DNA from: Planctomycetota bacterium
Lineage (GTDB): Bacteria; Planctomycetota; Planctomycetia; Pirellulales; Pirellulaceae
Assembly: GCA_026692865.1 (NCBI GenBank)
Contig: JAPLNI010000023.1
Location: 7,552 to 71,551 of the forward strand
Direction: 5' to 3'
Length of the DNA: 64,000 nt
Position 1 is the first letter of the stretch. Every line of letters starts with the position of its first letter. The notes under the pieces were generated by a model. That model did no database searches and had not been told where the DNA came from. It was given only the letters and a program-made list of their open reading frames with translations. This document shows positions 1-12,278 of this stretch, piece by piece. The position numbers and the translations under genes are program-made.

Positions 1-968
1 AGTAAGATATCTTCACGACGCGATCGAAGCGGAGGCAATCGCAACTCAATCCCTCGTAGCCGATAGTATAAATCAGATCGAAAACGATTCTGCTCCATCG
101 CGGACTCGAGATCCTGGTGCGTTGCACTAAGCACACGTACATCGACGGTGACTGTATCTTCACTTCCAACGGGGGTCATTGTCCCTTCCTGAAGGATTCG
201 CAGAAGACGCGTCTGCACACCTGAAGGCATGTCACCTATCTCATCCAAAAACAACGTGCCGCCATTCGCTTTTCGAAAGACTCCTTCACGATTCCGATCG
301 GCACCTGTGAACGCTCCGCGAATATGGCCGAATAACTCGCTTTCAATGAGGCTCTCAGAAATCGCAGCTGTATTGACGGCGACAAATGGCTTGTTGCTTC
401 GATCACTTAGCCTATGAAGTTCGCGAGCAACCAACTCCTTACCGGTGCCGCTCTCTCCGCGTATCAAGATTGGCAGTGAGGAGACGGCTGCGCGGCGAAC
501 TTGTTCAAACACCTTATGCATTGTCGCGCTCACACTAAACATTTCTCCCAGTTGAGGAACAGATTCGATCTGAGCACTTAATTGAGCCACATGCTGCTCG
601 AGCTCAAAGCGTTTCTGGCTGCGCGAGACAATCGATCGTACCTGTTCAATTTCATAGGGTTTTGTGATGAAATCAGCAGCCCCACGTCGAATGCATTCGA
701 CGGCCATTTCAATGTTGTCATTAGCGGTAAGCACAACAATCTCGGGACATACCCAATCCGGATGTGCTCGCATTTCCGCGAGGATTGATAGCCCGTCTCG
801 GTGGGGCATATTCAGATCGAGAAAAACTAAGTCCGCGCTGCTTGTACGAAGTAGGTCGAGTCCTCGCTGGCCATCGTCGGCTTCGATGATTTCACGCCCG
901 TGGCCGCGAACTGCACGATGGAGTGCGTATCGCGCCGTAGCGTCATCTTCGATGATCAGTATCTTCAT
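1..968 (-). CDS. sigma-54-dependent response regulator (NtrC/Fis family); C-terminus cut by window edge
   Basis: Minus-strand translation from ATG at 968 reads MKILIIEDDATARYAL... (receiver domain, phospho-Asp in FLDLNMP), then AAA+ sigma54-activator motifs GESGTGKELVARELH and GAFTGA. Its ATG overlaps the upstream HK stop (ATGA). Not in the ORF track because it runs off the window. Confidence 0.85.
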   Translation of the reverse strand, partial: MKILIIEDDATARYALHRAVRGHGREIIEADDGQRGLDLLRTSSADLVFLDLNMPHRDGLSILAEMRAHPDWVCPEIVVLTANDNIEMAVECIRRGAADFITKPYEIEQVRSIVSRSQKRFELEQHVAQLSAQIESVPQLGEMFSVSATMHKVFEQVRRAAVSSLPILIRGESGTGKELVARELHRLSDRSNKPFVAVNTAAISESLIESELFGHIRGAFTGADRNREGVFRKANGGTLFLDEIGDMPSGVQTRLLRILQEGTMTPVGSEDTVTVDVRVLSATHQDLESAMEQNRFRSDLYYRLRGIELRLPPLRSRREDIL

Positions 969-3229
969 ATGCTTCCTGGTTCTCCTAGTGGTAGCTCCAC
1001 GACAAACGTCGAACCACACCGCATTTCTGAAGTCACCCGAATCGTCCCTCGCAACTCTCGAACTCGCTCGGAGACGATGTACAACCCTAGACCAGTTCCA
1101 CTTGGCTTACTTGTTTCAAATGGCAAGAAAATGTTTGCCAGCCGGTCGGACGAGATTCCCGTTCCATTGTCGATGATGGTAACTCGATAAACCAAGTCTG
1201 TGGTTTCGCTGTTCACTTGGACATTCGCTTCACGACAATCCTTCGCCGCCTCCATCGCATTCTTAATAAGGTTCATAAAGATTTCGTTCATCGCGGCATC
1301 CGAAGCAAGAACTTTTGATTCTGGAGCATTTAATCGAACATCCAGTTTGATTCGTAGTTCTTTAGCATAATAGTCCATAATCGACAGGAGACGCGAGATG
1401 ACTCGATCGGGCTCGGTGACTACATTCTCGTATTCGGCTGGTTTTGCGAATTCGAGCATACGCTGCAGGGTTCTTGTCAGTCGATCGACTTCGGACACAA
1501 TCAAACGCAAGTCGTGCTGGTTAGGGTTCTCGCCCGAGAGATCTTCCGACACGAGGCTGGCTATTGTACGAATTGACGAAAGAGGGTTACGAAGTTCGTG
1601 TGCCAGAGAACCTGAAATCAAACCAAGCGTCGATAACTTTTCTTGCTGTAAGCTTCGTCGTTCCGCATGGCGTCGTAGCTCCTCATCATGATGGTTCTGT
1701 AACGTCGCCGCGAATTGATCGATGACCACCGACAATGAATTAATCTGTTCGTCAGCCAAACGATCGAAACGCCGACGACTGCCGAATAGAACCATTGCGT
1801 CAATAGTTTTGTATTGCATTGGAAAAGCGACATCGCAACGCAGCAATTCCATCTCGTTTGAAATCGCAACCGTCTCCTCTTCGCCTCGCTCCATGGACTT
1901 CAAACTCACTTTGAAGTGATCCAACAGAACCGTAAACGAGTTGTCTCGCAATTTCGTGCTGTCAACACCAGTGTCAGGATGGGCTGATGAAAACGCATTT
2001 TTTCCTGAGCCGTATGCTCTAGCCTCGGGTGGCACGTAGCCATTCGATTCTGAGTGCGCAAGAACGCTCAAATTCCGGGATGAACCCGTGGCTATCGATA
2101 TCGGCTCAGTTTTCATCTGGCCGGCCTCATACCGCCGCAGGCCTCGCATGTTGCGATCGGAGGAGCGATGAACGATGCAAGCCCAACTTAGTTCAAATCG
2201 CTCCCTTAGTTGATGCACAAACCAGTCACAATGAACATCTGTGCTAACGACAGGCCGCTGAGCAACTTCCCGGGCGAGCGAGCGAGTCGAGTCACGAACG
2301 CGGAAGGCATTGGGACTGAGCAAAAAACGAAGCGACTCCGCGGCTCGTCTCCGTAATGGTCGAATCCACCATATAAGTGACGTCACCACCAACACTTCGA
2401 TGATAATGAAATCGACATCAAACCGCTCTCGCATCGAGATCATGATCGGCGTAATGATTAATCGATGCAGAAGCAGAATGCTAAGAACAATTCCACCATA
2501 AATAATCGATTGTTCAAAGACAACCGGCAGCAGCCGACTCTTGAATGTGAACCAAACAAACACCACGGCTGGAATGAGCGGTAACATACTTACTGCGACG
2601 CGGCAAAACGGTTCCCATCGCGTCCCTATCGATCCCACCGCATAAACTGCGACTCCAACGGTAAGTAGCACAAGAAGGCCACTATTAAGTAGAAAAAACT
2701 TCTTTGCAATGAGATTGGGAACCCGGACACCAACTCGCAGGAATAAGACAGCGGAGAGAACGTTTGCGATTGCGAGCCATCCCAGATATACGATCGTCAG
2801 TGGCTGGACACTTGCGATAAAGTCCCCTGCGGGTCCGTTGTAAATTAGCCATGCGGCATAACCCAGCAATATAATTGGAGCATAAAGAAGGCAGTATCTC
2901 CAATCTGTTTTCTCAAGCCGCAGACCTTCGTCGGCATTAAAATCACGAAGCCTAATCGCAGCATGTAACATTGCTGATGGCATCAATAGCAAACCTGCGC
3001 AAAGCAATCCCATCGCAACCCTATCCAGTGCGACCGCAGATGTGTTGTGTTCCGACTGTAACAAGACGCGAAGAAAGTATCCAAAGTGATAAAGAATAGC
3101 CCCACCGACCAACCATTTTAGCCATGGTGCAACTTGCGTTCGATTGATCGGCTGAGTGAGTAATAGCAGCAAGACGATTTCGAACAGTCCAGCAAACCCA
3201 ACTACCAAGGGCTCCAATCGATCAATCAT
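965..3229 (-). CDS. sensor histidine kinase with large N-terminal polytopic membrane sensor region
   Basis: 754 aa. About 8 hydrophobic helices in the first ~300 aa. C-terminal HisKA/HATPase motifs: H-box HELRNPLSSIRT, N-box NLIKNAMEA, G1 DNGTGI, G2 GTGLGL. ATGA overlap with the downstream regulator. Confidence 0.85.
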   Translation of the reverse strand: MIDRLEPLVVGFAGLFEIVLLLLLTQPINRTQVAPWLKWLVGGAILYHFGYFLRVLLQSEHNTSAVALDRVAMGLLCAGLLLMPSAMLHAAIRLRDFNADEGLRLEKTDWRYCLLYAPIILLGYAAWLIYNGPAGDFIASVQPLTIVYLGWLAIANVLSAVLFLRVGVRVPNLIAKKFFLLNSGLLVLLTVGVAVYAVGSIGTRWEPFCRVAVSMLPLIPAVVFVWFTFKSRLLPVVFEQSIIYGGIVLSILLLHRLIITPIMISMRERFDVDFIIIEVLVVTSLIWWIRPLRRRAAESLRFLLSPNAFRVRDSTRSLAREVAQRPVVSTDVHCDWFVHQLRERFELSWACIVHRSSDRNMRGLRRYEAGQMKTEPISIATGSSRNLSVLAHSESNGYVPPEARAYGSGKNAFSSAHPDTGVDSTKLRDNSFTVLLDHFKVSLKSMERGEEETVAISNEMELLRCDVAFPMQYKTIDAMVLFGSRRRFDRLADEQINSLSVVIDQFAATLQNHHDEELRRHAERRSLQQEKLSTLGLISGSLAHELRNPLSSIRTIASLVSEDLSGENPNQHDLRLIVSEVDRLTRTLQRMLEFAKPAEYENVVTEPDRVISRLLSIMDYYAKELRIKLDVRLNAPESKVLASDAAMNEIFMNLIKNAMEAAKDCREANVQVNSETTDLVYRVTIIDNGTGISSDRLANIFLPFETSKPSGTGLGLYIVSERVRELRGTIRVTSEMRCGSTFVVELPLGEPGSI

Positions 3230-3587
3230 GCGTCAATTCTCGGTGACTGATCGGAACAATCTCATCGTTACTGATCTCGATTTCTTGAAGTCCAAAAGTT
3301 GTATTCATTCGAAGTTTACCCGTTAATCGTATTGTCGGTTCTGTTTGAGCATTCAGGATCAATTCGTGTGGATCTGTCGAACGGTCAACCACATTGGAAA
3401 GGACCAATCGAACACAAGATTCTGACTCTCGTTCCCACACAACTTCATGACCAATAACTTCGAAGATCGACTCCTCCCAAAGGAATCGATCTCCTTTCTC
3501 TAATCGCCCCATTCGGCCAGTGTGGGTACTTATCCTAATCCGGTCAACACCCAACCAAGTACCAAGCATTACTAAGAAGGAAATCAT
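3222..3587 (-). CDS. hypothetical 121-aa protein immediately upstream of (8-bp overlap with) the HK gene
   Basis: ORF only; same strand and tight spacing with the HK; no recognisable motif. Confidence 0.3.
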   Translation of the reverse strand: MISFLVMLGTWLGVDRIRISTHTGRMGRLEKGDRFLWEESIFEVIGHEVVWERESESCVRLVLSNVVDRSTDPHELILNAQTEPTIRLTGKLRMNTTFGLQEIEISNDEIVPISHRELTHD

Positions 3588-3789
3588 ATTCGTATACCGT
3601 CGAGCAATCGTCCCAACCTAAACTATTGATACGCCTCGCGCGTAGCAGAAGTCGTTAGACCTCTGAATTACCCACATCTTGGCCTTATCTCATACTTGAA
3701 CTCAATGAAATGGTACTCGGACTCGAAGTCCTCATACCATCAAGTTCTATTGGTTCCTTCCGGAGTCTTACGAATCCGGATACTCGACT

Positions 3790-4461
3790 TCAAACTATCC
3801 CTTGTTTCAGCATAGCCAATTCTGTTTCGATTTTCGATTGGCGTTCCTGTTTTTCGAATTCCCTTTCGATCTCGCTTTCAGGAATTGCGTCCCCATCCAT
3901 TTCGGTCCACGCTTGAATCTTGGCTTCTTGTCGATCGACACGATCCTCAAGCCTTTGAAACTGGGCAAACGCTGATTTTTGGTCTGTTCGTTCCATCGCG
4001 GTGTGAAGTTTGGTCGTAGTTCTCGCTCTGGCTAACCTCGCGACCAGAAGTGTCTTTTTATGCTGAGCTTGTCGAATCTTGTCCTCTAAATCACGGATCG
4101 AGGACTTCAGCTTCTCTACTTCCGTCGCTTGCTTGTCGTGGTCGGCAGTGTACTGCGCTAGGCGTTGAGTTGATGCCAACTTTTGCTCGAGCGCAGTTCG
4201 CGCAGTCGACTCGTCTCCACGCCCCATGGCGATCGTGGCTCGTTCAAGCCACTTTGCCTCTTCGGCACGCTCACGTTCAATTCTTTTCCGCATGAGTATT
4301 TCATCTGCTACCGCTTCGGCGACACTCGAGCGAACCGAGTCTAACTCGGATTGCATATCGACGATCAGCTGATGCAACATTCTTTCGGGATCTTCGATCT
4401 GTTCACGCAAAGCCGTAACACTTGATCGCATAACCAATGAAAACTGAGATAACCAAGCCAT
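3790..4461 (-). CDS. pspA: PspA/IM30 (phage-shock protein A / Vipp1) family protein
   Basis: 223 aa, all coiled-coil. N-terminus MAWLSQFSLVMRSSVTALREQIEDPERMLHQLIVDMQSEL matches the PspA signature ([40 protein letters not shown]). Confidence 0.85.
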   Translation of the reverse strand: MAWLSQFSLVMRSSVTALREQIEDPERMLHQLIVDMQSELDSVRSSVAEAVADEILMRKRIERERAEEAKWLERATIAMGRGDESTARTALEQKLASTQRLAQYTADHDKQATEVEKLKSSIRDLEDKIRQAQHKKTLLVARLARARTTTKLHTAMERTDQKSAFAQFQRLEDRVDRQEAKIQAWTEMDGDAIPESEIEREFEKQERQSKIETELAMLKQGIV

Positions 4462-4513
4462 AATCTAATTCCTTAAGTGAGAAACAAAACAGACAATTCA
4501 AACAACAAACGCA

Positions 4514-7500
4514 TCAGTTCCAATTCGCTAGTTCGGAACTCAAAAACCGCATTCGCGAGAGTAATCGTTCGCGGTAGACTTCACAAATCGCAGCCATCGC
4601 CATGACGAGCAGTCCTAGCGATAATCCACTCACCCATAGCATCTGCGGGTGATCGATTGCAGAGCGAGCGAGCATCGCAAGGAGGTCCGCGAACAAGAAC
4701 GCAATTCCAGTGAACATCAAAACTCGAACACGCAATCCGATCGCAATCAGTACAACAAGAACCGATAGCACCATCAGCGAAAACATATGCCACCAACTGC
4801 CTCCAAGAATATCGAAGACGGGTGAGACGAGAATGAATAAGGAACCGACGATTCGAATCGGTTTATGAGCCGACTGAGGTATCTCATGCTTCATCAGTTC
4901 AACCAATCCGAGAATCGAGATGCCGATTGGAGCCAAGTACAGTTGGAGATCCTCGAAACCCCACATTCGATTCAAGTTTGCAATCCCAATGTTTACCATG
5001 GTGATCGCTAACCAGACATGCCAGCGTCGGCCAGTCGTCCAGCCTTGATAGGCATGCGAAAACGCAGCGACAAAGATCGCCAATGCTGTCCACGGCATAT
5101 TTTTCGGTAGAAAGAATAGTGAAAAGACTCCAACACTAGTGACCAACAGGGTAAGCGTGAGGCCAACAACTAGCAAAGGTCTCGATGCGATTTGGAACGA
5201 CTCAGATTCCGTACAAATCTTACTCAGCCACTGCATCAGCAATCCGACTAAAACAGCAACTAACACTCCATATCCACTGTTTACGAATAGCCAACCATGG
5301 ACCAGCAAAATCAATGCACACACACCAACAATCTCCATGGCCAACCACACACCGACCTCGCTTCGCTCCCGAGTTGCGACTAAGAATTCCTGGACCGCCA
5401 TCGTGAGGGTCGCGAAAATCAATAGAACGACCGAGGTCACCGAGAGCTCAGCGACTGCGAAGAGACTTAGTAAGAGTGCGAACGAGCTTAGGCGAAGTAG
5501 CTCACTCCAAACAGCGTGACAGAGTGGATGGAACCGCAAGCCGAAACTTCGAATCAACACACTGTTCACTACCATCACGACCAATAAGCTGGGAATCTGA
5601 CGCGATACCGTGTCTTCTCCCCACAACAGCTGATTCGCGAGAGCATGAGCATCGATTCCGATCGCTGGAAGAATTGCCATCAATACAACTGCATTCGCCC
5701 AGATACATCCTAAAGTAAACCTTTTCGTTTCCACTTCAGGCTGGTAAAGCAAATAGAGCGATACTAACGATATCAAGCCTGTAATCTGAATCGGTATTGA
5801 AAACATACAAACGCTAAAGACACATAGAATCCCCAAAAAGGGACCTAGAACGCTTGGAACGTAAGTTGTCAGTTCACTTGACAGTTCACTCGTCGTCGCT
5901 TCATTTACCACATCGCTCTCTACTCGCAAAGCTTGTTCACATCGACGAGGAATGACCCCTGCGACAAACAACGTGATCGCCCAAATGAGTGCTGAGTAGC
6001 GAAGGTCTGAGGCTACATAGCCATTTGACTGTAGGAATGACGACACGAGTAAGGGTGATGCAACCACGAGAAGTGCTGTGACGGTGCGACTCTTGAGTAC
6101 ACCAATCGCAAACAGCATCCAAACCAGTACAACTATTCCGCTGGTGAGTAAGCCACTGTGATCCATTGCGAGACTCGCTTGGAGCAAAGCAACTCCATGG
6201 ACCGATAACATTCCGGCAATAAAAAGTGTCGCCAAGTCAGCAAGCGGGAGAAGCAACGCCATCCATGGGTTGGCGTTCGCCCTGGATGAAGAGTTGGTTT
6301 TAGATTCTATGTTGGCAACCGTCAGACCAAGTAATCTCCGTTCGTTGTTCCAGTCGATCGCAAGGGTGCGTCGAACTCCGATTACGGCTAAGTAACCAAA
6401 GATCGAAACGCTAACCGACACATAAGCGATCGCGTCAATCAGTTCGCTAAGACTCCAGTTCATCGCACACATCACACTTGCGATGACAACGAGCGTTACT
6501 AGTGAGAAAGCGAGGCCTGCTAGGTAGTGCCTCGTATCCCTTACGGTAATGAGTGTTGCAATGCCGCAAAGGAATGCTACGGTGTACTGAGGTGTTGTGA
6601 TGTCGTCGCCGAGACGACTTACCGACAGTCCAACCCAGATGCTTCCCAGAGCTAGCATGACTAGCATGCCCCAGCATCGACCCACAGAAACGTAAGTTCC
6701 ATCGCGCCAAGTTGGCCACGGAAGCCATTGACTGGTCGGCAACGGCACTCGTTCCAGCCATCGATCGACAGGAACGATGAGAAGCCCGCATCCGGCGATC
6801 CCTAAGCAAGTTCCGATATGAAAGATGTCGATCCAATTCCCAAGCATAGCGTTGATATAGGGAACGAGGAACGCTACGGCGATCGTCCCCGTAAGAAGAC
6901 TGAAGGCTGCGTAACGGCGATCTTGCCAGTTGATCGCATAGAATAGAAACAAAACACAGTGCACAATCGGGATAAGGAAGGCTGCCTTGAAATGAGTCAG
7001 AGACAGTGGCATCAGCAATAGCGTCAATCCGGTTGCGGCAACTTGGAGAGGTCTTGCAAAATGCGACTGCTTCCCAAGTAAACGACTCGCGACGGACCAT
7101 GCAAGTAACAAAGGTAGATAAGTGAGACCGTAGAACGCGTAAGGCAAGCGTTCCTCCGACAACGATTCCGCGGCAACGGTTATGACTTGCTTTGCAAAGG
7201 TCGAGACCAAGGTTGGAGCCACTTGATAGCAGATCGCCATGAGCACAATAGCCAGCCATGTGAACCCTGAACTGCGACTGTCACGTGCGGCGATCAACGC
7301 CAACACGGAAGCCAAAGCCGCAGTTGGCACGACGGCCTTCGTAGTCGGTCCAACCCAATGGAATCCATGGAACGAAACAGCGACTCCAGCTAACCCAATC
7401 ACTAAAGAAACGAAGGTAGGAATAACTATCGCGACTGGAATCGTCGTAATGAGTCCACCTGTACGAGCTCGAAAAACAGATGCGACTGTTCTTGCAGTGA

Positions 7501-8257
7501 GCATGATCGGAACGGCACATAGAACAAGCCCGAACCCAAGCCACTCGATATGTTCCATCCAATCTAACTTGGTTGCCAACAGCGCAAACATTTGCGAGCC
7601 AAGTAGAAGAATCGGCAAGAAACCGAATACCATTGGTTTGCGATACTGCTCGGCAAGCCAGAAGACATGGCGATTGACTTTGACGATGCCGATTGTACCA
7701 ACCGCCCATATCACCGCTCCGGCAACTAGGTTGCTATCTGCCATCACTGGCAAAGCACCTGCGATTGCGAGCGCTAGGTATGCGGCTTGAAAGGCTATTT
7801 GCCGGCCCCGCAGAAAGTGGCTCAAAACGCGACCAGAGATTACTGCCGCGAAAATCCCGCCACCAATCAGAAGCGGGACGAGAGAAGCAAAGTTGTTTGA
7901 GGCATTCGCGGAAAGCCATGGTAATGAAAAGAAGCTAATCGGTAGAAGTATAAGAGTCAGCATTTTCAAAACAGTCGACGTCGAACGCAAGCCTAATAGC
8001 TTGTCGCTCGCTTCGGCAAATCCATAGACAACACCGATATAGGCTAGGATCGAGAGAAACTTAAGGACCGTAGACCATTCGGCCCATTGCTGCACAACGA
8101 GCTTCAATGAAGAGACGGCGACAATCGCTGCGCCGACGAAAAGCATCCACTTGATATTCGACTCATGAAAGAATGCAGAGATGAATTTCTCAGCGAGCGA
8201 AGCCGGTCGCAATTGCGCGACTTCCGTTTCATCGTGGTCATTGGTTATTTGGTTCAT
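4514..8257 (-). CDS. giant polytopic inner-membrane protein (1247 aa, roughly 30-35 predicted TM helices), function unknown
   Basis: Long uninterrupted ORF, almost entirely hydrophobic helices separated by short Arg/Lys-containing loops. Ends 52 bp upstream of pspA on the same strand. Possibly a DUF2339-like family, not verifiable here. Confidence 0.8.
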   Translation of the reverse strand: MNQITNDHDETEVAQLRPASLAEKFISAFFHESNIKWMLFVGAAIVAVSSLKLVVQQWAEWSTVLKFLSILAYIGVVYGFAEASDKLLGLRSTSTVLKMLTLILLPISFFSLPWLSANASNNFASLVPLLIGGGIFAAVISGRVLSHFLRGRQIAFQAAYLALAIAGALPVMADSNLVAGAVIWAVGTIGIVKVNRHVFWLAEQYRKPMVFGFLPILLLGSQMFALLATKLDWMEHIEWLGFGLVLCAVPIMLTARTVASVFRARTGGLITTIPVAIVIPTFVSLVIGLAGVAVSFHGFHWVGPTTKAVVPTAALASVLALIAARDSRSSGFTWLAIVLMAICYQVAPTLVSTFAKQVITVAAESLSEERLPYAFYGLTYLPLLLAWSVASRLLGKQSHFARPLQVAATGLTLLLMPLSLTHFKAAFLIPIVHCVLFLFYAINWQDRRYAAFSLLTGTIAVAFLVPYINAMLGNWIDIFHIGTCLGIAGCGLLIVPVDRWLERVPLPTSQWLPWPTWRDGTYVSVGRCWGMLVMLALGSIWVGLSVSRLGDDITTPQYTVAFLCGIATLITVRDTRHYLAGLAFSLVTLVVIASVMCAMNWSLSELIDAIAYVSVSVSIFGYLAVIGVRRTLAIDWNNERRLLGLTVANIESKTNSSSRANANPWMALLLPLADLATLFIAGMLSVHGVALLQASLAMDHSGLLTSGIVVLVWMLFAIGVLKSRTVTALLVVASPLLVSSFLQSNGYVASDLRYSALIWAITLFVAGVIPRRCEQALRVESDVVNEATTSELSSELTTYVPSVLGPFLGILCVFSVCMFSIPIQITGLISLVSLYLLYQPEVETKRFTLGCIWANAVVLMAILPAIGIDAHALANQLLWGEDTVSRQIPSLLVVMVVNSVLIRSFGLRFHPLCHAVWSELLRLSSFALLLSLFAVAELSVTSVVLLIFATLTMAVQEFLVATRERSEVGVWLAMEIVGVCALILLVHGWLFVNSGYGVLVAVLVGLLMQWLSKICTESESFQIASRPLLVVGLTLTLLVTSVGVFSLFFLPKNMPWTALAIFVAAFSHAYQGWTTGRRWHVWLAITMVNIGIANLNRMWGFEDLQLYLAPIGISILGLVELMKHEIPQSAHKPIRIVGSLFILVSPVFDILGGSWWHMFSLMVLSVLVVLIAIGLRVRVLMFTGIAFLFADLLAMLARSAIDHPQMLWVSGLSLGLLVMAMAAICEVYRERLLSRMRFLSSELANWN

Positions 8258-8471
8258 CGCAGAGGTTCCCAGTAGCGAACGGTTTGGCCTTTTCCCGAGT
8301 CATTTCGGGATTCGCTTTACCTCTTTAACAAACGCCGTGCCGTCACGAATGGACCGCACAAATGCAATCGCAAACTATTTTCCTAAAAGCACTTGCGGCG
8401 TTTACGTTCGATTCCAAGAAAACAAGCAGATGCCAGAGATGCAGCGCGCAGACTGCGTTCAAGTGCATGTC

Positions 8472-9056
8472 TCAAGTAGCAGCGCATCGACGGAGCCAAA
8501 CGACATAACAAAACGATCTGACAATCGATTGCTGTCTTAAGATTCGATTCGCGGAGCGGGTAACGGGCATCCGATCGTGGATGCTTGCCATGAGCGAGTT
8601 GGGATTCGTTGTGATGATGGTAGTCGATTCGATCCAATACCCAGTTGGTTCTTTCCATTGCTCCCAGAGGCCTGCGAATGCAAAGGTGGATCGACTTCTC
8701 AGCGTGATCAGGAAAGGAATTTTTACTTTTTCGAACCTGGACCATTTATAGAATACATCTGCGATCACTAAACAACGCCGACGTTTAAAGGCTGTTCGAA
8801 ACGAAGGTTTTTCGGCGATGGTTTCAGCTCGAGCGTTTATCAGGCTGTTACCGATCTTCGCATCTTTAGCCCAAGACGGAATCAAACCCCATCGCATCCA
8901 AACTGGTTCACGCCCTTCCTTGCTTTGCCTAACTGCGAGTACCTGTTGCGTTGGAGCAATGTTCTATCGAACGGCGACATCGGTAGGAGGTCTTATCAAC
9001 TGGAATATGCGAACGAGCTCGCTCGAAGAAGTATGTAATGTATAACAACCGCAAAT
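8472..9056 (-). pseudogene. SOS-response-associated peptidase (SRAP/YedK, DUF159) pseudogene
   Basis: In-frame translation gives ICGCYTL...SSEL...PPTDVAVR*NIAPTQQVLAV...EPVWMRWGLIPSWAKD...LINARAETIAEKPSFRTAFK...FAFAGLWEQW...TTIITTNPN...IHDRMPV. This is collinear with YedK (MCGRY..RYNIAPTQ..WGYAPGWW..INARVET..HDRRP). The position of the essential Met1-Cys2 start is ATT (Ile). A TAG (8966..8964) replaces the conserved Tyr of RYNIAPTQ. The C-terminus after HDRMPV has lost similarity. Confidence 0.55.
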
Positions 9057-9123: not shown

Positions 9124-9696
9124 TCAACGAATCTCATCAGATTCTAACAGAACTTCGTTAAGCAACCCGACCAATCCTATGTTCAGTGCATGCGTTCGAA
9201 TGACGTCTTGTTGTGTGCTATCGCAGTTACGAAAGATGCCACGAAAATCACGTCGACTTCGTTGGCTGCCTTTGTCAATCCAAATGAGTTTGGACAAGGC
9301 TGCATCTATGCGCGACACAACTGGCAAAAAGATTCCGTCAAACAATTCGAGCGATTGTGATCGTCCGAGTTCGCCCGGTATTAACTCACGCGGGTACACA
9401 TCCAGTTTCAAACACTCGGATTTATCGAGTAACTGAAATAGATCGTTTTCTTGAATTGCTTTTCGGACTACAGGCTCAGTGAACCAAAAATCCGATACCA
9501 CTAGTTGCTCAATTAGGTCATCGACGCGTTGCTTTGCTGTGGTAGGCGATACGACGATGTCGATGTCTTGTGTTAGTCGTGGCTCGCCATAAGCTGAACT
9601 TATTGACCCTCCTGTCAAATGAAAAGGGAGCTCAATTGCAGTGGCAATTTGAACGAACTTTTCAATCGTTCTTTGAAACGCTTCAACGGGAAACAT
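9124..9696 (-). CDS. nucleotidyltransferase-fold protein (AbiEii / minimal-NTase-like)
   Basis: 190 aa. Motif HLTGGSISSAYGEPRLTQDIDIVV equals the pol-beta-type NTase signature hG[GS]x9-13Dh[DE]h (AbiEii pattern GG[ST]A..Y....R.S.DID). Confidence 0.6.
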   Translation of the reverse strand: MFPVEAFQRTIEKFVQIATAIELPFHLTGGSISSAYGEPRLTQDIDIVVSPTTAKQRVDDLIEQLVVSDFWFTEPVVRKAIQENDLFQLLDKSECLKLDVYPRELIPGELGRSQSLELFDGIFLPVVSRIDAALSKLIWIDKGSQRSRRDFRGIFRNCDSTQQDVIRTHALNIGLVGLLNEVLLESDEIR

Positions 9697-9928
9697 GTTG
9701 AAGATATTCCTCTATGAGTCTGATCACGTCCGGCTCGTGCTCATAGAGTTTCAAGGCAACCTGCCACCTTACATGCTCGTCCGAAAGAGTCGGATTCGCA
9801 TTGCGAAATTGCCTAGCCATTTGCTGCCGAGTCCAAGCGAGCATCGCTGCGCTTCGTGCCATTTTGTCTGCCGGCGACATCGCGTCGATACGCTTTTGGT
9901 ATTCGAGTTCTACGTCCGTTACGATCAC
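9683..9928 (-). CDS. hypothetical 81-aa helical protein, upstream partner overlapping the NTase gene by 14 bp
   Basis: ORF plus operonic overlap with the NTase gene. Small charged alpha-helical protein. Confidence 0.4.
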   Translation of the reverse strand: MIVTDVELEYQKRIDAMSPADKMARSAAMLAWTRQQMARQFRNANPTLSDEHVRWQVALKLYEHEPDVIRLIEEYLQHVSR

Positions 9929-10832: not shown

Positions 10833-12278
10833 CTACATCACTTGATCGCTAATCCAACTCACGGCCAATGCGATGATGCACGCAATGGTCAACGCTACCC
10901 CTGCCCAGCCCAAAATCGTTGCCACTCTGCCAATTTTCGCAGTCCCCACGACCTTGGGATCGCTTACCAAGATTTGCAGTGCCACAACATGGAAAGGCAG
11001 CAGGACGGCATTCACGACTTGGCTTAAGTAAATAAGCGGAATCAAAGACAGACCTGGAAGAGATACCACGCTTACGGCCGCCACCGTCAAACCTACGAAG
11101 GCCGCATAGAAATACTGAAAATGGTGTGAATCTAGATCAAGCGAAGCGGGAGCTCCAATCCCTTCTGCAATGGAGTAGGCTGTCGCCAGCGGAACGATGG
11201 CCGCCGCCAACAGCGAAGCCCCTAGTAGGCCCGCACCGAATAGAACCGTTGCAAAAGAACCCGCCAAAGGTTGCAGCGCGATCGCAGCGTCTCTCGCATC
11301 TTCGATTGGAATCCCAGCTTGATGGAGTGTTGCGGCGCACGCTACAGCAATCGAAAGACCGATGACGCCGGTCAGTAGCGAGCCGATTATGACATCGACG
11401 CGTTCCCATCGCAGGTCGGCAACTGTGATTTTCTTATCGACTGCGTATGACTGAATAAACGCTAGTCCCCAAGGAGCCAAAGTTGTTCCAAGGGTCGCGG
11501 TGATAGCGATCCAACCAGCGTTGTTCAGTGGCATACTTGGGATCAATGAATGATGAAGTACGAGTGACCAATCGGGTCCGGCCAAAATCCCGTCGACTAT
11601 ATACAACGCCAAGGAAGACGAAATAACGAGCAACACGACTTCCACTCGATGAAAAGAACCAAGCACCACGACTAGCGAGATCAGCAAGCCGGCAATTGGC
11701 GTGCTAAGCCATGAAGGAATACCAACAAGAGAAGCTGCCGCCGAGATGCCTGCATATTCAGCGCAGATCGTTCCGAAGTTCGCTAACAACAGGCCGATAA
11801 CAGCGAAATACCCCATTCGCACTCCCCACCGCTGGCGGATGATGGCGACGAAACCTTTGCCACTCGCCGCACCGATGCGGACCGCCAACAAATGGAAATA
11901 GACGAGCAAGATCGTCGACGCTGGAATGATCCAAAGAAGTCGATAGCCATGATCGGTGCCCAGCAATGAATAGGTCGTTATACCAGCAGGATCATCATCC
12001 GAGAGTCCCGCCAGCATCCCAGGCCCAAGAACTGCCAACAACGATGCAATCGCCCCAGCACCAGCACTACGATACTGATTGAATTTGCGAGCTATACCAC
12101 GTCGTTGGTGAGCAACCCCGTGAAGCGGTGCATGCGCGTGTCGCTTTTTTGCGGCATGATACAAAGTGTCGTGGAGACCACGAAGACGGCCAATTGCTTG
12201 ATTGTTCTTGTAGGATTTAACGCTCATGGATCTCCATACTACGCTTCGAGTGGGAAGGCTTAATGTAGCGTAACACAT
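10833..12278 (-). CDS. mntH: NRAMP-family divalent metal (Mn2+/Fe2+) transporter
   Basis: 481-aa ORF; the true start is probably an internal Met. Signature LGPGMLAGLSDDDPAGITTYS (GPG...DPGN-type TM1 motif), 11-12 hydrophobic helices. Confidence 0.85.
   Translation of the reverse strand: MCYATLSLPTRSVVWRSMSVKSYKNNQAIGRLRGLHDTLYHAAKKRHAHAPLHGVAHQRRGIARKFNQYRSAGAGAIASLLAVLGPGMLAGLSDDDPAGITTYSLLGTDHGYRLLWIIPASTILLVYFHLLAVRIGAASGKGFVAIIRQRWGVRMGYFAVIGLLLANFGTICAEYAGISAAASLVGIPSWLSTPIAGLLISLVVVLGSFHRVEVVLLVISSSLALYIVDGILAGPDWSLVLHHSLIPSMPLNNAGWIAITATLGTTLAPWGLAFIQSYAVDKKITVADLRWERVDVIIGSLLTGVIGLSIAVACAATLHQAGIPIEDARDAAIALQPLAGSFATVLFGAGLLGASLLAAAIVPLATAYSIAEGIGAPASLDLDSHHFQYFYAAFVGLTVAAVSVVSLPGLSLIPLIYLSQVVNAVLLPFHVVALQILVSDPKVVGTAKIGRVATILGWAGVALTIACIIALAVSWISDQVM

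Follow-up and report, generated by a model that had tools for sequence, protein, structure and literature searches.

A probable sigma-54-dependent operon joins PspA to a giant membrane protein in planctomycetes

The PspA/IM30/Vipp1 proteins are bacterial homologues of ESCRT-III, and their targeting and regulation are understood in three model lineages only. The sigma-54 promoter of E. coli pspA is experimentally known, and E. coli PspA is induced by overproduced or mislocalised membrane proteins. Its activator, PspF, lacks a receiver domain and requires Trp56 for inhibition by PspA. ZraPSR provides a precedent for placing the response to envelope stress under sigma-54 two-component control, with the periplasmic chaperone ZraP, not PspA, as its effector. 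Planctomycetes go unmentioned in the main text of two systematic Psp surveys, and the single mention in a supplement (PMC11237479) stands in an unrelated context.

The 64-kb stretch of planctomycete DNA analysed here (the window) begins with a cluster that an earlier note had described as five co-directional, tightly spaced minus-strand genes. ORF coordinates and Pfam matches bear this out. A giant, all-membrane protein of 1247 aa (8257->4514) is followed after 52 nt by PspA/IM30 (4461->3790; 223 aa, PF04012 E=1.6e-39) and, after a further 202 nt, by a small ORF (3587->3222) of 121 aa, or 115 aa if it starts from Met7 at 3569. The small ORF overlaps by 8 nt with a gene for a histidine kinase (HK) with HisKA and HATPase_c domains (3229->965; 754 aa), which in turn overlaps through ATGA with a gene for an NtrC-type response regulator (RR; 968->1). 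The window edge truncates this last gene to the first 322 of 450 aa. On contig L084, from the same organism, the full 450-aa RR is followed by convergent genes, so the cluster comprises five genes, on a single strand with close spacing and overlaps, and the RR gene marks the end of the operon.

The spacer between pspA and the small ORF (3588..3789, minus strand) is strongly structured. The RNA fold of 3588-3795 has a predicted energy of -73.8 kcal/mol (z=-4.8), and none of 200 shuffled sequences was equally stable. Rfam held no match for this region, and the spacer is neither repeated elsewhere in the 64-kb window nor conserved in relatives. It may be a site of attenuation or processing. It might also uncouple the genes downstream of pspA.

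The arrangement recurs in dozens of genomes. In 61/61 related loci (59 once duplicate assemblies are removed), the gene for PspA lies no more than 1 kb beyond the giant gene. The loci belong to Pirellulales and Planctomycetales, the only two orders in which the module was seen among the loci retrieved. The giant proteins are 30-50% identical to that of the window, and recurrence at this level of divergence places the arrangement beyond chance. A homologue of the small protein follows directly 3' of pspA in 43 loci by HMM search and in 49 by ORF clustering, both with and without an HK-RR pair; the 121-aa ORF is thus a third conserved core gene and no filler. The HK-RR pair itself lies 3' of the core in 20 of 49 loci (~40%), in both orders, and is therefore accessory. 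Related genomes thus keep the neighbourhood of giant gene and pspA, whose absence there would have told against the earlier proposal. All-vs-all ORF clustering of the loci revealed no further conserved neighbour.

The giant protein had been described as carrying about 35 TM segments and no soluble domain. A Kyte-Doolittle scan of the window protein gives ~33 TM segments, with 71 aa as the longest non-hydrophobic stretch between them. Structure prediction relied on a reduced alignment. For a 1197-aa homologue, AlphaFold (pLDDT 85.8) models 38 TM-like helices with connecting loops of 1-14 residues. With ~33-38 helices, short loops and non-hydrophobic stretches of at most 71 aa, the description holds. 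Searches returned no Pfam, NCBIfam or PDB relative for the protein, and no known domain at its termini even at relaxed thresholds. A structure search with the homologue model gave no fold relative either, the best structural analogues of its helical array being designed toroids and solenoids. Among 267 homologues, the sourced names are all 'hypothetical protein' save one UniRef entry, 'DUF2157 domain-containing protein', and all organism names shown are planctomycetal. Judged from these sequences, the giant protein appears to represent a new family limited to Planctomycetia, rather than a known family of unrelated function.

Conservation within the giant family is strong at residues 25-460 and 1080-1247 and weak between them. 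The C-terminal block contains invariant E1120, H1157, R1176 and D1191, located in or beside hydrophobic helices. We make no claim of internal repeats, as the best segment-wise hhalign result (384-491 vs 1006-1119) reached a probability of 76%, which is weak for hydrophobic helices. At the N-terminus, PF09925 (DUF2157) matches 6 of 15 giant homologues over residues ~20-145, at a sub-threshold 24-30 bits against a cut-off of 32.4; these matches cover the N-terminal four helices. The window's own protein gives no DUF2157 match even at E<=1. Ravi et al. 2024 (PMC11237479) unite DUF2157 and the LiaI/LiaF TM domain in one sensory module associated with PspA. The similarity is weak, but through it the giant protein may have some relation to known Psp partners, those of LiaIH-LiaGFSR included.

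The window PspA scores 136.2 bits with PF04012 (cut-off 33.9) over residues 5-220 and falls below the NCBIfam equivalog cut-offs of both proteobacterial PspA and LiaH. It is therefore a member of the PspA family, and hence of the ESCRT-III superfamily, but an orthologue of neither. Aligned with E. coli PspA over residues 1-186, a stretch that takes in the amphipathic helix region at the N-terminus, it is 28% identical. The small protein has no Pfam or PDB match, relaxed thresholds included, and is a new family with the motif W..DRIR.SP..GRLL.L..GDR. Its AF2 model (pLDDT 62.6) comprises an N-terminal helix and ~8 beta strands, and Foldseek returned nothing significant for it.

The HK fits its earlier description as a kinase whose N-terminal region consists of membrane helices: a Kyte-Doolittle scan places 8 TM segments within the first ~300 residues, ahead of a linker, HisKA and HATPase_c. 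No known domain was found in the TM and linker regions at relaxed thresholds, and homology between the TM domain and the giant protein was rejected (hhalign probability 1.8%). Only 135 relatives of the TM domain emerged from 1.84 billion representative proteins searched. Leaving aside shorter entries that resemble fragments, all are around 700 aa long and carry the domain N-terminally, and the sensor forms a small family essentially confined to this kinase architecture. In all three kinase contexts examined, the gene adjoins an NtrC-type RR, the giant-PspA-small protein core, or both.

Identification of the RR as an NtrC-type sigma-54 activator was likewise borne out. The window portion contains REC and Sigma54_activat domains with an intact GAFTGA at residues 218-223, and AAA_lid_14 and the Fis-type HTH_8 are present in the full-length copy on L084 and in the close relative L003, completing the domain set of the NtrC family. 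The RR falls below all NCBIfam equivalog cut-offs and so is itself not NtrC, ZraR or AtoC. A phage-defence reading was rejected: in a PADLOC search the giant protein, PspA, small ORF and HK gave no match, and the sole match, to RtcR/PspF-type models, came from the RR through its generic sigma-54 AAA+ domain.

A scan of 8258..8470 located a sigma-54-type -24/-12 promoter by motif match, CGGCACGGCGTTTGTT, on the minus strand at 8327..8342 (8342->8327), starting 85 nt and ending 70 nt before the giant ATG. This is the sole match to [TC]GGCA[CT][GA]N4[TAG]TGNN on either strand of the window. A slightly stricter motif, [TC]GGCA[CT][GA]N4[TA]TGNN, was sought on the coding strand in the 260 nt that precede the giant gene; 40/74 loci contain it there, compared with ~0.01 per locus expected by chance, and of its 100 matches in 2.64 Mb, 40 fall in these upstream regions. 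Spacing (GG-N10-TG), position and orientation are constant, and position -12 is T or A instead of the consensus C in 45/45 promoter copies. The same scan of the giant-pspA gap (4462..4513) found no site, which fits co-transcription of the two genes. The scans revealed no second sigma-54 promoter before pspA or the HK gene in the window, and none recurs in relatives.

Upstream of the promoter lies a candidate activator site, CGCAAG-N17-CTTTGCG (8369..8397, minus strand), with the core GCAA-N19-TTGC at 8396->8370. Of 45 promoters, 22, that of the window among them, have a spacer of precisely 19 in the core G[CT]AA-N19-TT[AG]C, whereas shuffled controls averaged 2.1 and never exceeded 6. Most of these palindromes are centred 40.5-42.5 nt upstream of the YGGCAC element, counted from its first base, with 40.5 nt for the window copy. 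The palindrome centre is only ~67 nt from the predicted start site, nearer than most enhancer sites. From its sequence and regular placement, we infer that the GYAA-N19-TTRC palindrome is bound by the RR. Between promoter and gene, the 5'-UTR contains the hairpin TCCCGA-N6-TCGGGA (8293..8310, minus strand, by RNA fold), and the first 50 nt of the predicted giant-gene UTR fold with -14.7 kcal/mol (z=-2.6). In near relatives, hairpins with other sequences occupy this position of the 5'-UTR, but across the loci as a whole a conserved hairpin finds no support (mean z -0.5).

The locus resembles E. coli Psp most closely in its promoter and activator. As in the canonical system, a sigma-54 promoter precedes the pspA operon at sequence level, and the E. 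coli promoter, TGGCACGCAAATTGTA, has the same form as CGGCACGGCGTTTGTT, with a non-consensus T at -12. The AAA+ domains of PspF and the RR are 48% identical, both with GAFTGA, and membrane-protein genes share the pspA operon in both organisms. In contrast to PspF, the window activator has an N-terminal receiver and a sensor kinase. PspF W56 aligns to Ser191 of the RR, and by TIGR02974 (score 209 against a cut-off of 443) the RR does not classify as a receiver-less PspF. None of the five window proteins has a Pfam match to PspB or PspC; PspA is accompanied instead by the 1247-aa giant with its 38 helices and by a small soluble protein that is new.

The likeness to ZraPSR lies in a sensor kinase and an NtrC-type sigma-54 activator placed over an envelope-related response. 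The best NCBIfam matches of the HK and RR include ZraS and ZraR, both well below equivalog level (140.3 bits against a cut-off of 479, and 276.4 against 760), and the window kinase is all-membrane at its sensory end whereas ZraS carries a periplasmic sensor domain. Compared with LiaIH-LiaGFSR, the window regulator is NtrC-type and sigma-54-dependent, unlike the NarL-type LiaR, and its kinase combines HisKA with 8 TM helices. The membrane partner is ~10 times the size of LiaI, and Pfam gave no match to Toastrack, LiaF, LiaG, DUF4097 or DUF2154 in the window proteins. The mycobacterial clgR-pspA-pspM-pspN cluster follows the same operon logic, combining PspA with a lineage-specific integral membrane partner, a likewise lineage-specific small protein and a dedicated regulator (PMC11237479), but that regulator is ClgR, with a Cro-like HTH, where the window has a sigma-54 two-component system. 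The giant and small proteins, both without a Pfam match, showed no sequence relationship to PspM or PspN.

Taken from sequence, these features make it probable that the cluster is a PspA module peculiar to planctomycetes and forms a single sigma-54-dependent operon, working along the following lines. The kinase, which has no periplasmic domain, would sense disturbance of the bilayer and then phosphorylate the RR. The RR would bind the palindrome as a dimer or oligomer, and its GAFTGA AAA+ domain would open the sigma-54 promoter. Transcription of all five genes would follow, making the proposed loop self-reinforcing. The giant protein would recruit PspA, as an ESCRT-III-type polymer, to the membrane, a role like that of LiaI or PspB/C elsewhere, with its conserved cytoplasmic loops (among them the conserved loop 193-216) and C-terminal helix (residues ~1226-1247) as the probable contact surfaces. 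The small protein might serve as an adaptor or feedback element linking PspA or the giant protein to the kinase. Control would thus pass through receiver-domain phosphorylation, unlike the sequestration of receiver-less PspF by E. coli PspA. The conserved core and promoter, together with the silence of the survey main texts on Planctomycetes, support the earlier reading of an undescribed envelope-stress module variant, the stress function itself being the presumptive part.

The link between the RR and the giant-gene promoter is presumptive. The promoter is commoner where an HK-RR pair is adjacent (20/28 vs 11/27 loci, Fisher p=0.03); as a strict match is missing in 8 of the 28 HK-positive loci and present in 11 of the 27 without an adjacent HK, the pairing is correlative. 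It could be argued that the HK-RR pair regulates other genes and lies here incidentally, since the pair is found alone in other genomes (L087, L089) and promoter and palindrome are retained in 9-11 loci with no adjacent HK-RR, such as those of Fuerstiella (L011, L052). Against this, the pair is co-directional with the core, the overlap of small ORF and HK is seen in the window and in close relatives, L003 among them, the genes have stayed neighbours in both orders at ~30-35% identity, and the family of the kinase matches that of the giant protein in its small size and restriction to a lineage. Alternatively, the -12 element without its canonical C might mark the motif as the site of some other factor and not a sigma-54 promoter, but the exact GG-N10-TG spacing, the fixed position and orientation and the shared form of the E. 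coli pspA promoter speak for sigma-54. We regard this pair of objections as very improbable. In 16 loci, including that of Rubripirellula obstinata, both the sigma-54 motif and the HK-RR are missing, so the core can evidently run under other regulation.

The giant protein could be the real effector (a channel, transporter, lipid-handling enzyme or structural membrane array), with PspA co-expressed only as protection for the membrane against what it costs to insert or run a protein of 38 helices; PspA would then serve the giant protein. The four invariant residues near the conserved C-terminal helices, the first place of the giant gene in the operon, its strict coupling to pspA and the induction of E. 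coli PspA by membrane proteins all favour such a role, which we hold to be a possible, if minority, explanation. A more specific version of recruitment, in which the giant protein is a membrane-embedded alpha/alpha array of a new kind, its 38 TM helices nearly without loops, that senses bilayer tension, curvature or packing across a broad expanse of membrane and nucleates the PspA polymer, with the small beta-protein providing coupling, seems to us unlikely in that detail. The module might also serve the constitutive shaping and upkeep of the invaginated cytoplasmic membrane of planctomycetes instead of a stress response, with the two-component system adjusting its expression to the state of growth. 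In cyanobacteria, internal membranes are built by PspA relatives such as Vipp1/IM30 (PMC11237479), the giant family is seemingly limited to Planctomycetia, and many loci are without the inducible promoter. However, a sensor kinase and sigma-54 activator typify conditional expression, the module was confined to two orders among the loci retrieved, and nothing in this analysis links the genes to invaginations, so that we consider upkeep of this kind distinctly improbable. The inducible, sigma-54-dependent module therefore remains our preferred reading.

The planctomycete module represents a fourth solution to PspA targeting and regulation, strictly conserved in two Planctomycetia orders. It brings with it two uncharacterised families, and the giant protein is among the most helix-rich single-chain membrane proteins of bacteria. 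Its design joins a sigma-54 promoter, in form like that of E. coli pspA, with a phosphorylation-controlled activator, as in Lia and Zra, features that are otherwise separate. The promoter and palindrome supply concrete cis-elements, and because nature has kept or dropped the promoter and the kinase-regulator pair from locus to locus, a ready comparative experiment exists. Carriers include culturable genera such as Novipirellula and Rubripirellula, with the full module in Novipirellula sp. SH528 and N. rosea. If the array proposal were true, the giant protein would define a class of ESCRT-III membrane partner not known before and peculiar to bacteria whose cytoplasmic membranes are extensively invaginated. 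More broadly, the module may be relevant to how planctomycetes maintain their unusual endomembrane topology.

The ORF listing and translation, from which gene calls and junctions were taken, agree with the earlier note's description of five co-directional minus-strand genes in both coordinates and junctions. The giant membrane protein ORF (8257->4514, 1247 aa) is followed after 52 nt by pspA (4461->3790; Pfam PspA_IM30, E=1.6e-39) and, after a gap of 202 nt, by a small ORF (3587->3222, 121 aa) with no match in Pfam or NCBIfam. This ORF overlaps by 8 nt the gene of a histidine kinase (HK; 3229->965, 754 aa; Pfam HisKA and HATPase_c), which is joined through an ATGA overlap to that of a response regulator (RR; Pfam Response_reg and Sigma54_activat, with GAFTGA in its translation) leaving the window at base 1. 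In L084, a contig of the same organism that reaches beyond the window edge and encodes a 100% identical small protein, the full RR has 450 aa, with a C-terminal AAA_lid_14 and Fis-type HTH_8. Because convergent genes follow the RR there, the cluster comprises exactly five genes. Gene anatomy and family assignments are established on this basis, and the five genes would be co-transcribed.

Homologues of the giant detectable in sequence collections number 267, at ~1200-1300 aa; the sources name them 'hypothetical protein', plus one UniRef 'DUF2157 domain-containing protein', and the organism names shown are all planctomycetal. Scanning one genome per species gave 80 loci, among them Pirellulales (Pirellula, Novipirellula, Rubripirellula, Rhodopirellula) and Planctomycetales (Fuerstiella, Planctomicrobium, Schlesneria, Planctomyces). 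Giant-gene fragments on 1-29 kb contigs (loci L006, L042, L055, L060 and L082) lie in bins assigned to Flavobacterium, Kuenenia, Chitinophaga and Synechococcales MAGs; for those bins that are not planctomycetal, contamination during binning is the most likely explanation, rather than horizontal transfer.

With the window proteins as tblastn queries, the first kilobase after the giant contained PspA in all 61 loci having that DNA (59 after removal of duplicate assemblies), bearing out the suggested conservation of the neighbourhood. An HK with the same 8-TM domain lay downstream in 20 of the 49 loci with at least 5 kb of downstream DNA, in most cases with an NtrC-type RR next. The proposed co-occurrence of the giant with both PspA and the HK/RR pair thus holds for PspA, but not for the HK as a constant partner. 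In 43 loci, with or without an HK, an HMM built from the 121-aa ORF detected a homologue as the next gene after pspA, and the motif W..DRIR.SP..GRLL.L..GDR is kept; judged by this conservation, the ORF is a real gene. When all ORFs of 90 aa or more in the loci were clustered all against all, in an unbiased manner, the giant was recovered in 69 loci, PspA in 64, the small protein in 49, the HK in 27 and the RR in at least 18, with no further conserved neighbours. These counts therefore describe a three-gene core, seen bare in Rubripirellula obstinata, and an accessory two-component pair.

The ~35 TM segments first estimated for the giant are well matched by the ~33 of a hydropathy scan (which gave 8 in the HK N-terminus) and the 38 TM-like helices of an AlphaFold model. 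This model, of a 1197-aa homologue rather than the window protein and built from 100 sequences, is all-helical with loops of 1-14 residues (mean pLDDT 85.8, pTM 0.66). Conservation is strong over residues 25-460 and 1080-1247 and weak in the stretch separating them. Of the invariant residues with charged or aromatic side chains, many lie in short, presumably cytoplasmic loops rich in K/R (e.g. K193-N195-R196-H197-F199-W200-E203), and others in the C-terminal block (E1120, H1157, R1176, D1191) and its tail (C1225-E1226...W1246). The giant has no match in Pfam or NCBIfam, and neither it nor the small protein has known relatives. PF09925 (DUF2157) falls on the first four helices in 6 of 15 giant homologues, scoring 24-30 bits where the cut-off is 32.4, and is precomputed for 11 of the 120 homologues listed; the window giant gave no match to it. 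This sub-threshold match is the giant's only link to known biology. In the text of Ravi et al. (2024, PMC11237479), DUF2157 is merged with the LiaI/LiaF TM region as the 'LiaI-LiaF-TM' domain, recurrently beside PspA. We take the match as a hint that the giant may serve as an anchor or sensor, not as demonstrated membership; a contact of the giant with PspA is predicted.

The small protein has no TM segment by hydropathy and no family match. In its model (pLDDT 62.6) one helix at the N-terminus precedes ~8 strands, and a fold search returned nothing significant beyond a weak likeness to small up-and-down barrels. Its stop overlaps the HK start in the window and close relatives such as locus L003, and it is retained where the HK is absent; its role in the module is putative.

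The HK lacks a periplasmic domain, and no Pfam family is recognised in its TM block. Only 135 relatives of this domain came out of an exhaustive phmmer search through 1.84 billion representative proteins, most of them ~700 aa long with the domain N-terminal and the shorter entries resembling fragments; the sensor therefore represents a small dedicated family. A relationship between this domain and the giant was rejected on comparison of the two. The AAA+ domain of the RR is 48% identical to E. coli PspF, in which Trp56 is needed for inhibition by PspA. Since Trp56 aligns to Ser191 and the RR carries a receiver domain, control is likely to be by phosphorylation, not PspA sequestration.

The suggested scan for a -24/-12 promoter upstream of the giant located CGGCACGGCGTTTGTT (8342->8327, minus strand), starting 85 nt and ending 70 nt before the ATG. 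Across both strands of the 64-kb window, the relaxed pattern [TC]GGCA[CT][GA]N4[TAG]TGNN matches nowhere else; the 52-nt giant-pspA gap, the other place proposed, has none, and no such motif recurs between giant and HK across related loci. With the pattern made slightly stricter (only T or A allowed at the third-last constrained position), 2.64 Mb of related loci gave 100 matches; 40 of these, from 40 of 74 loci, fall on the coding strand in the 260 nt preceding the giant, where chance alone would give ~0.01 per locus. Because the variable positions differ between lineages, the shared element is not simple sequence inheritance. Although the pattern left -12 free, the base there is T or A in 45 of 45 copies (the window and 44 related loci), never the canonical C. 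The experimentally established E. coli pspA promoter, TGGCACGCAAATTGTA in K-12 (L083, 1513-1528), likewise has T at -12. The non-consensus base may reflect convergence among psp promoters or a trait of sigma-54 in the planctomycete lineage. The element would be sigma-54-dependent in vivo.

Upstream of this conserved promoter-like element lies a conserved inverted repeat, G[CT]AA-N19-TT[AG]C. Of 45 promoters, 22 have a spacer of precisely 19 nt (shuffled controls: mean 2.1, maximum 6), many of the remainder nearly match, and the palindrome centre almost always precedes the -24 element by 41.5 nt. The window copy (8397->8369, minus) is a candidate activator site, and we infer that the HTH_8-bearing RR binds such palindromes and that the window's own RR acts at the giant promoter. 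The promoter is commoner with an adjacent HK-RR pair (20/28 versus 11/27; Fisher p=0.03, uncorrected for phylogeny); promoter and palindrome are retained without the pair in 9-11 loci, and 16 loci have neither promoter nor pair. The pair also occurs alone in other genomes, so regulation in trans is plausible. Two stand-alone orthologue pairs of 8-TM HK and NtrC-type RR (L087 and L089, one in the complete 7.8-Mb genome OW818684.1) are distant from any giant-PspA core and have no -24/-12 motif near. In the simplest model a single promoter would serve the whole cluster, which would imply positive autoregulation, and the module would be induced by stress.

The pspA-small ORF spacer (3588-3795, minus) is far more stable than shuffled controls (-73.8 kcal/mol, z=-4.8) and contains the hairpin GGUAUGAGGACU-UCG-AGUCCGAGUACC, then AUUUCAUU. 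It has no Rfam match and no repeat copy in the window. The structured spacer is strain-specific: relatives lack it, and their gap is often only tens of nt (e.g. ~10-100 nt). It may act as an attenuator of transcription into the downstream regulatory genes. In Planctomycetaceae-type loci (L013, L018, L019, L022, L067, L072) a giant 5'-UTR hairpin, CCTGAGC...GGAGG.GCTCAGG, is conserved; the Shine-Dalgarno sequence immediately ahead of the ATG lies inside this hairpin, which may control translation. A different hairpin (8293-8310) is present in the giant UTR of the window.

Three further minus-strand features lie near the cluster. At 8383-8897 lies a remnant of a SRAP gene (PF02586): the 141-aa ORF covers no more than positions 58-170 of the 214-position profile, and its frame goes on in a second, overlapping ORF (8383-8745), so that a pseudogene with a frameshift is the probable reading. 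The 3' end of this remnant overlaps the candidate activator site. At 9124-9928, an 81-aa ORF precedes and overlaps the gene of a 190-aa protein that weakly matches the AbiEii nucleotidyltransferase toxin (E=6e-5); the two may be a type IV toxin-antitoxin pair, and are not kept beside the module in other genomes. An Nramp-family metal transporter (10833-12278; PF01566, E=1e-68) is outside the conserved module.

The module shares with Psp and Lia systems a common logic of PspA effector, membrane partner and dedicated regulator. Unlike canonical Psp it lacks PspB, PspC and an activator of the receiver-less PspF type; unlike Lia it lacks the Toastrack domain and a LiaSR-type pair. It therefore fails the defining tests of both systems, and has no equivalog-level match to ZraSR. 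Planctomycetes are absent from the main text of the two systematic Psp surveys consulted, the supplement of one naming them in an unrelated context only, and our search for 'phage shock' and planctomycetes found no dedicated study. The text of a sigma-54 regulon survey (PMC12316311) places PspA among sigma-54-associated COGs in general terms only. As far as these main texts go, the proposal of an undescribed variant of a Psp-type module stands, and the module brings with it two uncharacterised protein families, the giant and the small protein.
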